From a bacterium (lineage in GTDB: Bacteria > Patescibacteriota > Microgenomatia > Daviesbacterales > UBA10151), in contig JAJYNW010000024.1 of NCBI GenBank assembly GCA_021786105.1, forward strand, positions 1 to 10,240: a DNA stretch of 10,240 bases, in the 5' to 3' direction. The position numbers and the translations under genes were made by a program. This document shows, one piece after another, positions 7,575 to 10,240 of the stretch. Each line of letters opens with the position of its first letter. Within the stretch, counting starts at the first letter, position 1. Below the pieces are notes generated by a model that did not search any database, was not told the DNA's origin, and saw only the letters and a list, made by a program, of their open reading frames with translations.

Positions 7575-7603
7575 TTGCCATAAGTTTGCTGAAGGTGTAA
7601 AAT
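7575..7603 (+). promoter_or_regulatory. sigma70-type promoter, probably giving a leaderless transcript
   Basis: TTGCCA (7575-7580), 17 nt, TAAAAT (7598-7603); ATG at 7611 follows 7 nt later with no SD. Confidence 0.6.
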
Positions 7604-7610
7604 CTGCTTC

Positions 7611-7898
7611 ATGTCAGAAAGAGCAGAAATAGAGCTAGGGCTAGGACCATTAATGACCTATGAAGCCCAACTTGGTTGCCCGATAACAAGGCAAAGTGCA
7701 CGAGCCCTATTTTGCCCGTATGCTAATGAATGCGAGTTGCCCGTAATCCAGATAAAAGCAGAGGATCATGAGCAGGCTCAAAGACTCGTAGGAAATGAAG
7801 CCTTTACCGATCCAATACCGGATTGTTTGTTGGGAAAACCTTATCTGACTAAAGTCTCTGGGAACCTAATGCTATTACGGCGAGTGGATGCAGCTTAA
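7611..7898 (+). CDS. hypothetical protein (95 aa, four Cys)
   Basis: Only sizeable ORF in the gap, with a well-placed promoter. No family recognised. Confidence 0.65.
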   Translation: MSERAEIELGLGPLMTYEAQLGCPITRQSARALFCPYANECELPVIQIKAEDHEQAQRLVGNEAFTDPIPDCLLGKPYLTKVSGNLMLLRRVDAA

Positions 7899-7936
7899 TT
7901 TCCCCAAAAGCAGTAATGCCTTTGTCTCATAGTTAT

Positions 7937-7965
7937 TTGACATATTTACTGAATAATGTTATAAA
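7937..7965 (+). promoter_or_regulatory. strong sigma70 promoter driving attenuator cassette 1
   Basis: TTGACA (7937-7942), 17 nt, TATAAA (7960-7965), with an extended -10 TG at 7957-7958. Confidence 0.75.
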
Positions 7966-7975
7966 TTATTAGGAT

Positions 7976-8056
7976 ATGAAAAATATTTTAATTTTAAATT
8001 TGCATAACACCTATTACACCGCCTTAATCTTTGGCGGTGTTCATCGTAGAGTTTAA
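7976..8056 (+). CDS. putative attenuator leader peptide 1 (26 aa)
   Basis: MKNILILNLHNTYYTALIFGGVHRRV*. Starts just after the predicted TSS, overlaps hairpin 8016-8040 and ends ~30 nt before a terminator. Confidence 0.65.
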   Translation: MKNILILNLHNTYYTALIFGGVHRRV

Positions 8057-8086
8057 AGCTATTTATAAAAGATATCCCACTTAATG

Positions 8087-8110
8087 AACCCGCCAAGAGG
8101 CGGGTTTTTT
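8087..8110 (+). terminator. intrinsic terminator of attenuator 1
   Basis: AACCCGCC-AAGA-GGCGGGTT followed by TTTT, located upstream of the 8216 gene. Confidence 0.8.
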
Positions 8111-8215
8111 AGTGGGTTAAAGTCGTAAATCGACATTAATGGGATAACTACAAACTAATCCGCGTACAGCGGGTGATTTTAATTCTGTGTTATCCCAGGA
8201 AAGGAGGTGATAAAA

Positions 8216-8707
8216 ATGAATAGAGAAATACAAACAGTTGGTATTGGAGAAGTATTTTTACCTGTATCAAGATCGGGTGATATCGATTTTCAGATATTTG
8301 GTAAGAATATAGTGGGTAGATTTGAGCTTAATATTGCGGAATTAGGACGCAGAAGCTCTATCCCTTTTGTGGTAGGACTTAACTCGGGAGTTAAGGATGA
8401 TCGGAGCGGGCTTTTACACAGACTCCATGTTGAGTCGGATCGAAAGCGGCTTACACAAAGGCAATTAATTGAAGTCCGCGAGAGAGATTTTTTGGGCCTT
8501 AAATGGCAGAAGGGACTTTTCTTTCCGGAGGTTTTGGCAGTGGCACAGCGGCTACGTTTGCACCTGATGCGACCAGAAGGAAGGTTAGAACATGAGCCTG
8601 ATGAGGAGGCACTGAAAAAAGGCGCAATAGAGTTTTCCCCGAGGCCTGCTGTTGAAGATACGGGAGCGTTGGTGATGGTCAGGTGGAGGTTTATCCTGGC
8701 CGACTAA
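8216..8707 (+). CDS. hypothetical protein (163 aa) behind attenuator 1
   Basis: SD AAGGAGGTGA (8201-8210) points to in-frame ATG 8216; the ORF-track GTG at 8207 is part of the SD. No family recognised. Confidence 0.75.
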   Translation: MNREIQTVGIGEVFLPVSRSGDIDFQIFGKNIVGRFELNIAELGRRSSIPFVVGLNSGVKDDRSGLLHRLHVESDRKRLTQRQLIEVRERDFLGLKWQKGLFFPEVLAVAQRLRLHLMRPEGRLEHEPDEEALKKGAIEFSPRPAVEDTGALVMVRWRFILAD

Positions 8708-8758
8708 AAGAATTCAATGGGATGGCTAGGGACGTGCTAGCCATCTCAAATTATAAAT

Positions 8759-8839
8759 ATGAAAAATAAATTTTTACAACTGAATAACTATGCTTATTTT
8801 AGCCTACCGAAAGGGGGTGCATTTTTAGTGGTTAAATAA
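8759..8839 (+). CDS. putative attenuator leader peptide 2 (26 aa)
   Basis: MKNKFLQLNNYAYFSLPKGGAFLVVK*. Same length and layout as leader 1, ending ~27 nt before a terminator. Confidence 0.6.
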   Translation: MKNKFLQLNNYAYFSLPKGGAFLVVK

Positions 8840-8866
8840 CTTTTTAAAGCTTTACCAACTAGATTT

Positions 8867-8892
8867 AAGCCCCCGCAAAGGGGGCTTTTTTT
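8867..8892 (+). terminator. intrinsic terminator of attenuator 2
   Basis: AAGCCCCC-GCAAA-GGGGGCTT followed by TTTTT. Confidence 0.8.
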
Positions 8893-8903
8893 ATGCAAAT
8901 TTT

Positions 8904-8926
8904 GAAAGGAGGTGATAAAAATGAAT
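8904..8926 (+). repeat. 23-nt exact direct repeat (SD plus start block), other copy at 8199-8221
   Basis: GAAAGGAGGTGATAAAAATGAAT is present at both 8199-8221 and 8904-8926. Confidence 0.9.
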
Positions 8927-8964
8927 CTTGAAATGAACAAAGATTAGCTCCTCGTGAGTTAAGA

Positions 8965-9201
8965 ATGGTGCAAAAAAGACAGTGGACTGCCGGTGAGCTG
9001 GAGAGGGAGGTGATTAGGTGTGGATTTGAAATTGTCCCAGGGGGAAGACACGCTCATCATGTTGTCCGTATCGATCCTGAAACAGGCAGGAGAGGTTTTA
9101 TTGGTTGTTTGCCTGGGCACCGGGGAAAAAACGTTCCCATTGGTACAGCCCGTGACCTGATCAACCGATTAAGGCAGGCCATGATGGAAGAAAGGAGTTA
9201 A
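8965..9201 (+). CDS. HicA-like type II toxin (mRNA interferase fold), divergent
   Basis: 78 aa with the HicA pattern: ELERE...GFE, G-x-H (GGRH), LPGH and VPIGTARDL. Confidence 0.65.
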   Translation: MVQKRQWTAGELEREVIRCGFEIVPGGRHAHHVVRIDPETGRRGFIGCLPGHRGKNVPIGTARDLINRLRQAMMEERS

Positions 9202-9327
9202 TCTTATGTATCGGCTAGTGCAAAAATCCAGGCTGAAAAGTAAATCCGAGTAAGCCTGGATTATGCCAGGAACTCCCTAAAAGTCATAATTGCCTTGAGC
9301 TTACAGAAGGGATAAAATTTGTTCAAA

Positions 9328-9909
9328 ATGAACCTAGAAAATCATGTGCTTGTTTTACCTGGTTTAAGTGGTGATAGTGAAAGGGTTAAAGCTCTATTAA
9401 AAAACCTAAATAGTCCCCAGCTTAATTTTCACCTAAGTACTGCGGCAAATTGGAATAATTTCTCCGAAGATATTCAAGCCAAGATTAACAGGATAGAAAG
9501 TGAAGTTGATGAATTATCAGAGCAGGGGAAAGTATCAATTATCGGTATCAGTGGTAGCGGGAGTTTGGCAGGTCTTGTCTATTTAGAAAGGGAAGGGGAA
9601 GTAGAGAGGGTAATCAATGTTTGTGGTCGTTTAAGACCGAGAGGTATTCCGCCTCTTTGGTTGACTTCTTTAAGAAACCCTACCTTCAAGAAATCTGTAT
9701 TGGCATTCCAGGAAAGGGAGCCGGAACTAACTGAAAGTGATAGAAGAAAATTCTTAATCTTTCAGGCAAAATTTGATGAGTTGGTGCCCGGGTCAACCAG
9801 CTATTTAAAGGGCGCCCAAATAATTCACCTTTCTGCTGTTGGGCACATGTGTGCCATAAAAAGTGCATTTTTGGAACACGGCAACCAGATGATAGATTTT
9901 TTGAGATGA
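9328..9909 (+). CDS. alpha/beta-fold hydrolase
   Basis: VLVLPGL oxyanion loop, IIGISGSG nucleophile elbow, DELVP acid, GH catalytic His. TTGCCT-17-TAAAAT (9290-9318) favours ATG 9328 over TTG 9319. Confidence 0.75.
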   Translation: MNLENHVLVLPGLSGDSERVKALLKNLNSPQLNFHLSTAANWNNFSEDIQAKINRIESEVDELSEQGKVSIIGISGSGSLAGLVYLEREGEVERVINVCGRLRPRGIPPLWLTSLRNPTFKKSVLAFQEREPELTESDRRKFLIFQAKFDELVPGSTSYLKGAQIIHLSAVGHMCAIKSAFLEHGNQMIDFLR

Positions 9910-10084: not shown

Positions 10085-10240
10085 AACCGCTGGTAACTCC
10101 GCCCTTTTAGGGCGGGGCGGAAAGCGGTAAGCACAAAACTGGTAGGGTAAAATATCTAGGTGGGATTAAAAAAGTACAATCATTCAGTTGGTGAGTATAT
10201 CTATCACTTTACCTTCATACCAAAATATCGAAAGAGAAGG
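10085..10240 (+). mobile_element. IS200/IS605-family element, left end (continues beyond the window)
   Basis: Subterminal hairpin CTCCGCCCT-TTT-AGGGCGGGG (10097-10117) nested in ACCGCT/AGCGGT (10086-10091/10123-10128), directly followed by a TnpA N-terminus. The exact boundary is uncertain by a few nt. Confidence 0.8.
10160..10240 (+). CDS. tnpA: IS200-family Y1 (HUH) transposase, 5' part
   Basis: GTG start, MGLKKYNHSVGEYIYHFTFIPKYRKRR, matching the H-S-V...Y-H-h-h-h-h-P-K-Y-R N-terminal signature of IS200 TnpA. Confidence 0.85.
   Translation, partial: MGLKKYNHSVGEYIYHFTFIPKYRKRR

Follow-up and report, generated by a model that had tools for sequence, protein, structure and literature searches.

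The stretch of DNA analysed here (the window) is an entire contig of 10,240 nucleotides (nt; C2) from a Microgenomates genome (G000) of 1.04 Mb, 40% G+C and 26 contigs. It carries, on the plus strand like the other parts of both units, two short upstream open reading frames (uORFs), uORF1 at 7976-8056 and uORF2 at 8759-8839, each followed by an intrinsic terminator and a Shine-Dalgarno (SD) block with an ATG. Unit 1 precedes a gene for a 163-amino-acid (163-aa) protein, and unit 2 precedes a HicA-like gene. An earlier note had read the two units as tandem leader-peptide attenuators in front of non-biosynthetic genes. Our comparison with related genomes indicates that both cassettes are probably members of a Microgenomates-wide family of ribosome-mediated transcription attenuators, which seem to be residue-specific and to gate proteins purged of the sensed residue. 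The pair of units taken alone is weak evidence; significance comes from the family-level tests.

Anatomy of the two units

Both uORFs begin with an ATG, run for 26 codons to a stop codon, share the start ATGAAAAAT and have Tyr at codon 13 followed by an aromatic residue at codon 14 (Tyr in uORF1, Phe in uORF2), just as the earlier note had described. The further likenesses that it had listed are less telling. The MKN start ATGAAAAAT stands in both uORFs but is not distinctive, given 52 occurrences in the genome; likewise, the word TTTAAAGCT does lie at 8052-8060 and 8843-8851, but it occurs 49 times in the genome and is placed differently in the two units, overlapping the stop codon in unit 1 and lying downstream of it in unit 2. 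A Gly-Gly pair is present in each peptide (codons 20-21 of uORF1 and 19-20 of uORF2), but merely as a by-product of the G-run in region 2 of the leader RNA, which is read in differing frames among relatives. The 23-nt SD/ATG block GAAAGGAGGTGATAAAAATGAAT is indeed identical in the two units and has exactly two occurrences in the 1.04-Mb genome (8199 and 8904). Since its first 13 nt complement the 3' tail of the genome's own 16S (on contig C8) without a mismatch and GAAAGGAGGTGA occurs nine times in the genome, this identity is in part just that of a shared strong SD.

Unit 1 has a predicted promoter at 7937-7965, a consensus match with TTGACA (7937-7942), 17 nt and TATAAA (7960-7965). The uORF1 ATG lies 10 nt past the -10 box without an SD, and in a scan of the unit's own genome this was the sole match to such a promoter/ORF geometry on its contig. 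RNAfold predicts a first hairpin, P1, at 8016-8040 (-14.6 kcal/mol), in which region 1 (ACACCGCC, 8016-8023) pairs with region 2 (GGCGGTGT, 8033-8040); the Tyr-Tyr codons 13-14 (8012-8017) abut or overlap region 1. The intrinsic terminator T1 (8086-8110) has a stem of 8086-8094 with 8099-8107, the loop AAGA and six T (8105-8110), at -17.1 kcal/mol (RNAfold). A predicted antiterminator (8031-8096) joins 8031-8044 to 8084-8096 in 13 bp with one bulge, at -17.8 kcal/mol by RNAfold of 8030-8097 and -20.5 for the duplex by RNAduplex, and in the predicted folds it is mutually exclusive with P1 and with T1. The fold z-score of unit 1 against shuffles is -6.61. Judged by its sequence, this unit keeps all the features of the family described below, apart from a repeat inserted in its 5' untranslated region (UTR).

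In unit 2, Tyr codons 11 and 13 (8789-8791 and 8795-8797) and a Phe codon (8798-8800) lie directly upstream of region 1. The predicted antiterminator (8813-8874) pairs GGGGGU (8813-8818) with GCCCCC (8869-8874) and includes an inner helix (-20.3 kcal/mol, RNAfold), and the intrinsic terminator T2 (8867-8892) consists of AAGCCCCC-GCAAA-GGGGGCTT followed by seven T (8886-8892), with its stem at 8867-8887 and -16.2 kcal/mol. A consensus terminator scan found T2 and did not find T1. The spacing of about 30 nt between stop codon and terminator in the earlier note agrees with our measurement, T1 beginning 30 nt and T2 28 nt after the stop. Relative to the U-tract, the stop codons stand at -51 nt (unit 1) and -49 nt (unit 2), within the family range of -41 to -59. 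From the U-tract to the SD there are 12 nt in unit 2, which leaves no room for a promoter. The hairpin after the 163-aa gene (8718-8748, a 12-bp inverted repeat) has no U-tract and is probably an inefficient terminator, so that transcription of unit 1 may read through into unit 2.

The start of the gene behind unit 2 is less simple. The earlier note had the two units gating an orphan ORF and a HicA-like gene; both genes are present, but the second SD block with its ATG (8904-8947; ATG 8921, stop 8945-8947) opens just eight codons in the assembled allele, and the HicA-like frame is a different one. In run X4, a single DNA contig (128 nt, depth 2.8) has one more C behind 8932, and this extra base would bring ATG 8921 into the HicA-like frame; the main allele (depth 22.5, X1) is without it. 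The extra-C allele may be a natural frameshift polymorphism of the toxin gene, or a contig error at that depth.

No Pfam family matches either uORF peptide, and three other readings of the peptides were rejected. A double-glycine bacteriocin leader does not fit, as the G-run belongs to region 2 of the RNA and relatives read it in three different frames. The reading as a type I toxin is unsupported, the peptide changing where the RNA stem covaries. A remnant of a hydrolase gene start was also considered for uORF1, which has only 22 nt in common with contig C21: 7975-7996, including the first seven uORF1 codons, is identical to C21:58910-58931 at the start of a hydrolase-like gene (MKNILILHGAGNN), and similarity ends there. 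This identity may have arisen by chance, the sequence being AT-rich, or may be left over from a small recombination event.

A recurrent leader layout in Microgenomates

BLAST of 7600-9330 against 96 same-family genomes matched 55 of them (own genome included), and the matches were confined to two parts of the query: 8113-8201 (the repeat) and 8794-8950 (the end of uORF2, T2 and the SD). Junctions, that is, a terminator, an SD and a start codon, were gathered blind to uORFs from the matches to 8794-8950 and from a terminator/SD pattern. This pattern returned 23 sites in 21 genomes among 96 of the order, and it was found in 19 genomes from six families among 401 of the class, with 0 for the reversed-pattern control in both searches; in a 185,579-species collection (no reversed-pattern control) it returned 59 stretches. 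The record titles in the species collection name Daviesbacteria, Levybacteria, Curtissbacteria, Roizmanbacteria, Gottesmanbacteria and "Patescibacteria group"; some records are labelled "Gammaproteobacteria", a label that we distrust.

The cassettes share one layout. In the 5' part, TTGACA-17-TAnnnT is followed a few bases on by the start codon of a 14-42-codon ORF that holds a hairpin with a GGGAGG 3' arm (P1). About 30 nt of spacer, in which a small hairpin is often present, lead to the terminator GCCUCCC-N4-GGGAGG-U7, which lies 10-35 nt upstream of a near-perfect SD; in the 3' part, RTGG, an A-rich segment and GAAAGGAGGTG precede a small gene (52-148 aa) that starts with ATG. The RTGG stands directly after the U-tract in nearly all of the cassettes L024-L147 (TTTTTTTGTGG or TTTTTTTATGG). 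A third canonical cassette of the own genome lies at C5:136-330 (gene to 630), with TTGACA-18-TATAGT, an Ile-type leader (MNTQRLATITAIIITSPAGGS), a terminator and the SD AAAGGGGGT; its gene encodes a 99-aa Cys-bearing protein with no recognised relatives. Downstream proteins of the family match no Pfam family in 48 of 49 cases, the remaining one being HicA-like, and NCBIfam, PHROGs and PADLOC gave nothing credible for them.

The earlier note had proposed a search of this genome and of other Microgenomates for such units, and the same layout does recur. An ATG ORF of at least 12 codons, with its stop between -62 and -38 nt from the U-tract, is found at 48 of 51 junctions, compared with 5.6±2.4 in dinucleotide shuffles (maximum 14 in 200), 6 in the reverse complement and 0-1 in neighbouring windows; a replication set gave such a uORF at 26 of 30 junctions. 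Relatives thus keep the ORF and its stop position, while the reading frame moves with respect to the RNA motifs. A TTGACA-like -35 and a -10 box are recognisable as a pair in 34 of 49 leaders, with the start codon 6-13 nt past the -10 in 29 of these 34, and an SD-like motif precedes the leader ORF in only two leaders. We infer from this geometry that leader transcripts begin at, or a few bases before, the start codon and are leaderless or nearly so.

Conservation is visible at the level of both peptide and RNA. Leu-type leaders from four genomes of different genera have a common N-terminus, MSK.I.IDLKRVENL, with synonymous differences, and their inner hairpin contains compensatory substitutions that alter the peptide (e.g., VLLAGA versus VLITRT), which indicates that ORF and RNA constraints act on the same sequence. 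Since the MAFFT alignments A3 and A5 lose the register of P1, we used per-sequence folding and duplex permutation instead; RNAalifold on A3 recovers the outer P1 stem and the terminator only. The earlier note knew of no named family for these elements, and no Rfam model reached gathering in the window or in relatives: Trp_leader aligned to 8026-8113 at 26.9 bits (gathering 41), anchored on T1, and Phe_leader (RF01859) appeared three times in relatives at 32.6-35.6 bits (gathering 55). A match to the eukaryotic snoRNA snR87 in the window (34.4 bits) is due to chance.

The pairing between region 2 and the terminator 5' arm with its flank is specific to each leader. Own pairs gave -13.33 kcal/mol versus -12.21 for swapped ones (0 of 5000 permutations), and in some leaders (L080, L050-, L065) the duplex reaches 12-13 bp beyond the terminator stem. 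The leaders are also specific in their codons: runs of at least four identical residues in seven occur in frame in 36 of 49 leaders, versus 14 and 11 in the other frames. The run classes among the leaders are Leu (19), Phe (12), Ile (8), Thr (3) and Cys (2), and Cys-run leaders are L084, L085 and L114. These runs overlap region 1 (median -11 nt, a noisy measure).

The identity of the run is further linked to the composition of the gated protein. Downstream proteins use the run residue of their leader at 0.41 times background, compared with 0.98±0.10 after permutation (0 of 10000; 42 of 46 cassettes), and 15 of the 46 proteins in this first set have none of it (for example, one of 84 aa has no Leu, one of 137 aa no Phe and one of 131 aa no Lys). 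In a second set of loci from the species collection (n = 21), the ratio is 0.60 versus 0.96±0.15 (12 of 5000), and with one cassette per cluster (48 clusters) it is 0.50-0.56 versus about 1.0 (0 of 1000 in 20 of 20 picks). A test by residue, which compared run-residue frequencies downstream with those of other cassettes in 68 cassettes excluding the window, gave 0.5% versus 3.0% Phe behind Phe-clustered leaders, 4.3% versus 8.4% Leu behind Leu-clustered ones, 3.6% versus 6.4% Ile behind Ile-clustered ones and 0.5% versus 2.4% Tyr behind the six Tyr-clustered ones (p = 0.004); clusters of Lys, Val, Asn and Ser, used as controls, showed no downstream depletion. Depletion of the run residue fits sensing of that charged tRNA, with the gated protein made while the residue is scarce, and the link in composition also shows that the small downstream ORFs are real genes.

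The window falls in line with the Tyr class. Neither downstream protein contains Tyr (0 of 163 residues, with 10 Phe, in the 163-aa protein; 0 of 78 in the HicA-like protein), and the only real homologue of the 163-aa protein has 0 Tyr in 158 aa; as background, 7 of 166 ORFs of 140-190 aa in the genome are without Tyr. A Tyr-only relative, whose leader ends ...NYSYS, precedes a protein of 136 aa with 0 Tyr and 8 Phe. Given the Tyr clusters before region 1 and the Tyr-free downstream proteins, both window units read as putative Tyr sensors.

Downstream genes, the inserted repeat and neighbouring sequence

The gene behind unit 1 occupies 8199-8707 with its SD (SD 8199-8211, ATG 8216, stop 8705-8707). 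Its 163-aa product matches no Pfam family. It was found in its own genome only, both among 61 relatives and in a two-row profile search of 401 genomes of the class, and a word-index search returned only the protein itself. An exhaustive search of 1.84 billion representatives gave two weak relatives, one of them a real homologue with 47% identity; the loci encoding the two were not found in metagenome scans. The other relative, P0004 (470 aa), is built of six or more tandem repeats, every one of which is similar to the segment 114-144 (...RLEHEPDEEA...) of the 163-aa protein. Structure models of the latter are of low confidence, with a predicted local distance difference test score (pLDDT) of 0.33 in the Atlas and 41 by AlphaFold2 (AF2), and the Atlas neighbours fall below the bar.

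The HicA-like gene (8965-9201) encodes 78 aa from ATG 8965, in a frame open from 8932. Pfam HicA_toxin (PF07927) matches its product at 23.4 bits (E 6.4e-5), below the 27-bit cut-off. The single-sequence AF2 model (pLDDT 83.7) has the order helix-strand-strand-strand-helix (H9-18, E22-25, E30-36, E43-50, H59-76) of HicA, resembling a double-stranded RNA-binding domain, and the top Foldseek matches are HicA chains of HicAB complexes (6g26, 1whz and 6hpb; E 0.02-0.16, probability 0.97-1.00). The best of these, 6g26_E/F, has a template modelling (TM) score by target of 0.74-0.75, probability 1.00 and E 0.023; no match has E <= 0.001. A word-index search returned only the protein itself, and the lone match of a PDB sequence search, a repeat protein, was spurious. 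Pfam found no HicB family in the neighbours of the gene, and no genome-wide search for HicB was made.

Between the U-tract of T1 (...TTTTTTAGTGG) and the SD (AAAGGAGGTG), where canonical cassettes have a short A-rich spacer, unit 1 holds a copy of a structured repeat of about 90 nt (8113-8201); a consensus scan found no promoter within it. A covariance model finds six copies in the own genome, the others being at C14:67523-67632, C20:51239-51348, C20:15543-15653, C22:55610-55720 and C7:9189-9296. Over 19 copies, the repeat has three helices with 24 consensus pairs, 13 of them with compensatory changes; it has no Rfam match. Under strict filters it is present in 2 of 151 genomes of the class, and BLAST finds it in several genera of the family. 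It takes the same position after the terminator in cassettes of two same-genus relatives (L012, L016) and also follows an ordinary rplL terminator. Other copies occupy the D-loop position of partial duplicates (about the first 30 nt) of a tRNA, directly upstream of the intact tRNA; in the own genome, the adjoining tRNAs are Val-TAC, Lys-CTT and Lys-TTT. The insertion site after the U-tract is (G)TGG, and GTGG resembles the tRNA D-loop sequence AGTGG. The repeat may be a mobile element, or else an RNA module with a function.

Elsewhere in the window, at 7575-7898, the end of a promoter-like site, TTGCCA-17-TAAAAT, lies 7 nt upstream of ATG 7611, where a 95-aa ORF without a Pfam match begins. 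This leaderless-like geometry is that of the leaders and suggests that leaderless mRNAs are common in this genome. At 10160-10240, an ORF starting MGLKKYNHSVGEYIYHFTFIPKYRKRR runs off the contig end; we take it to resemble an IS200/IS605-type TnpA, and the island of small genes may border a mobile element.

Mechanism, rival explanations and known systems

The conserved uORF and stop position, the leader-specific pairing of region 2, the residue-specific runs and the residue-depleted downstream proteins support the reading of the earlier note, that of leader-peptide attenuators reused before non-biosynthetic genes to report nutrient status. Read onto the anatomy, conservation, complementarity and link in composition that we observe, the transcription starts, leader translation, stalling and regulated read-through would fit together as follows. 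A sigma-70-type promoter would fire a transcript that starts at or near the leader start codon; the leader would run through P1 (regions 1:2) and stop about 50 nt before the U-tract of the terminator (regions 3:4). When the monitored aminoacyl-tRNA is plentiful, the ribosome would reach the stop codon, or P1 would form, so that the terminator forms and puts an end to transcription. Under scarcity, the ribosome would stall on the cognate codon cluster at region 1 and leave region 2 free to pair with the terminator 5' arm, upon which RNA polymerase would read into the gene. The gated protein, purged of the sensed residue, would remain makeable during that starvation, and different members would monitor Leu, Phe, Ile, Tyr, Thr or Cys.

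Several observations weigh against this mechanism, for the window above all. Its leaders are the weakest run-bearers, with two Tyr codons each (YY and YAYF), and the top 7-residue window of uORF1 is one of Leu, not Tyr. Lack of Tyr is no rarity in a protein of 78 aa (Tyr is absent from 108 of the 391 ORFs in the range of 70-100 aa, though many of these ORFs are spurious), and the 163-aa protein is Leu-rich (20 of 163). No orthologue of either window gene together with its leader was found. The note's claim of tandem paralogous cassettes holds for the layout, which is common to both, but sequence-level paralogy of the units is not demonstrable, and MAFFT pairs T1 with the first hairpin of unit 2 rather than with T2. 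At the level of the family, the pattern used for the collection fixes the CCTCCC/GGGAGG stem, and the genomes that contributed cassettes are related, which limits the independence of the cassettes. Of the helices expected to covary, the inner hairpin has the compensatory changes given above, but RNAalifold finds such changes in only 2 of 15 pairs over 14 Leu-type leaders, because the core stems hardly vary. Some cassettes are also not depleted: L050+ (8 Leu in 98 residues), L068- (6 Leu in 62), L088 (9 Ile in 103) and L131 (20 Leu in 148), to which the cassette of the own genome on C5 (7 Ile in 99) and L016 (a gene of 322 aa) are to be added. Unit 2, lastly, has no SD before uORF2 and, in a promoter search, no convincing promoter at the right distance; its P1 (8802-8818, GCCUACC-GAAA-GGGGGU with an A·G mismatch) is weak at -5.6 kcal/mol, its fold is not better than shuffles (z = -1.18), and its ATG 8921, despite the strong SD, opens the eight codons noted above. 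By its sequence, unit 2 thus appears weakened in its P1, its lack of a recognisable promoter and the frameshifted gene start of the assembled allele; it may default to read-through, or be decaying.

These features of unit 2, together with the repeat inserted in the 5' UTR of unit 1, are also what speaks for the window units, unit 2 above all, being decaying relics that regulate nothing, with leaky or constitutive terminators. We hold this to be improbable: unit 1 is complete, with a 13-bp antiterminator and a promoter at the canonical distance, both stops keep the family spacing, both downstream proteins are Tyr-free, and the 90-nt repeat is also present in otherwise canonical cassettes of relatives. 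A little less improbable, though still unlikely, is that the leader peptides sense general translation stress, such as antibiotics or global starvation, and not one amino acid. The downstream genes are not biosynthetic, the window leaders have only two Tyr codons each, and switches made of a uORF and a terminator are reported elsewhere in front of resistance genes and of a toxin-antitoxin operon; a generic sensor, however, does not predict residue-specific leader classes with matching depletion and none for Lys, Val, Asn and Ser.

Two further alternatives deny the leaders a regulatory or even a coding role. That the short, partly hydrophobic ORFs are independent small-protein genes with their own terminators, the likeness to attenuators being incidental, gains something from the Leu-type leaders, which resemble single-pass membrane peptides and conserve their N-terminus across genera. 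We rate it as very unlikely, since a promoter does not fit between U-tract and SD, region 2 and the terminator arm are complementary in a leader-specific way, compensatory changes in the hairpin override the peptide sequence, the uORF peptides have no Pfam match, and the link in composition between leader and downstream protein would be left unexplained. Least probable of all, to the point of being hardly credible, is a non-translated structured RNA (riboswitch-like or protein-binding) that controls the terminator while the ORFs are there by chance. The same terminator/SD junction does occur behind a long T-box-like leader without a uORF on contig C22, but chance does not give an ORF at 48 junctions where about 5.6 are expected, residue runs that are in frame, synonymous differences at the N-terminus, or frames that shift against the RNA motifs while ORF and stop are kept.

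The proposed residue-specific attenuators resemble several known systems. Classical leader peptides of Proteobacteria (trpL, pheL, leuL, thrL, ilvL and hisL) stand before amino-acid biosynthetic operons. Like Trp_leader (RF00513) and Phe_leader (RF01859), the Microgenomates cassettes fall into residue-specific classes (Phe, Leu, Thr, Ile) and have a short ORF with putative cognate codon clusters at region 1, predicted alternative helices 1:2, 2:3 and 3:4, and an intrinsic terminator upstream of the first gene. Unlike the classical leaders, they gate small family-less proteins (52-163 aa) and one HicA-like protein instead of biosynthetic operons, their leaders are leaderless-like without an SD, the gated protein is purged of the sensed residue, the lineage belongs to the Candidate Phyla Radiation (CPR), and their Rfam scores (26.9 against 41 bits; 32.6-35.6 against 55) stay below gathering. 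The T-box (RF00230) likewise senses tRNA charging by a terminator/antiterminator switch, but it has no leader ORF and binds tRNA directly, and the window units have no T-box match in Rfam. At C22:16900-17400 (minus strand), a weak T-box match (28.7 bits, gathering 93) falls in a structured leader that spans about 290 nt, has no uORF and precedes a MazG/HisE-like gene; the U-tract-GTGCAAATTTTGAAAGGAGGTG junction at its end is that of unit 2. A homologous leader in a relative (L031, G078:C1) precedes a small gene and then hisE-, hisI- and hisS-like genes.

Leaders that sense antibiotics, such as the erm/cat and vmlR types, are a further known class. As reported, an msrD-type antibiotic-sensing leader stands before a resistance gene, a uORF precedes the TopAI-YjhQ toxin-antitoxin operon of Escherichia coli (PMC12121999), and a uORF of whiB7 is connected with alanine starvation (10.1101/2023.06.02.543512). 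Going by these reports, the Microgenomates cassettes are like the antibiotic-sensing and TopAI-YjhQ uORFs in that stalling in a translated uORF would alter a gene unrelated to amino-acid synthesis, including a toxin; they differ from these and from whiB7, which respond to drugs or a single signal, in being a set of residue-specific leaders with composition-matched targets. Attenuation by a uORF in front of genes without a biosynthetic role therefore has precedents. The "Cys ribulon" of mycobacteria (Canestrari et al., bioRxiv 10.1101/834739) consists of polycysteine leaderless short ORFs that reportedly exert translational control at cysteine-metabolic loci, ribosome stalling there freeing a sequestered ribosome-binding site. 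On this account, the two systems would share a leaderless sensory first cistron, stalling on a residue run and many independent copies that make up a ribosome-directed regulon, whereas the Microgenomates units have a U-tract terminator between leader and gene, followed by a free SD, and as a family would monitor at least six residues and target small proteins without a family match. We found no paper that describes such a family: none turned up on attenuation or leader peptides in CPR or Patescibacteria, and among the titles listed for leader peptides in Microgenomates none concerns attenuation, in a literature of which the subscription part was only partly covered. The proposed mechanism is that of classical attenuation; what is new is the lineage, the leaderless-like leader, the breadth of residues and the composition-matched, family-less targets.

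A wider reading, which we put forward tentatively and rate somewhat below an even chance, is that Microgenomates, which cannot make amino acids, possess a "ribulon" of independent leaderless attenuators, each gating a residue-specific starvation effector purged of the sensed residue, which could be produced solely, yet still, once that residue is exhausted, with Lys perhaps monitored too. The gated proteins, including the partner-less HicA-like RNase, would then help to arrest growth or play a part in relations with the host. The own genome, which is 92% complete, showed no RelA_SpoT (PF04607) domain, where a control search matched 11 of 14 named genomes; this fits the ribulon but is no proof of it.

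CPR bacteria depend on hosts, have not been cultured and have few known regulators. The family described here would give them a direct, residue-by-residue read-out of charged tRNA with which to sense nutrient supply, and a promoter and some 100 nt of RNA, together with the ribosome, would suffice for it. The composition rule would serve as a sequence-only signature that predicts the ligand of each switch; it shows that dozens of family-less small proteins are real genes under selection, and it would mark them as starvation-response proteins, a label that gives a handle on the "dark matter" of CPR genomes. In the window, a HicA-type toxin would be placed under amino-acid control without an antitoxin. 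If true, the ribulon would amount to a starvation response of a kind undescribed for any bacterium.

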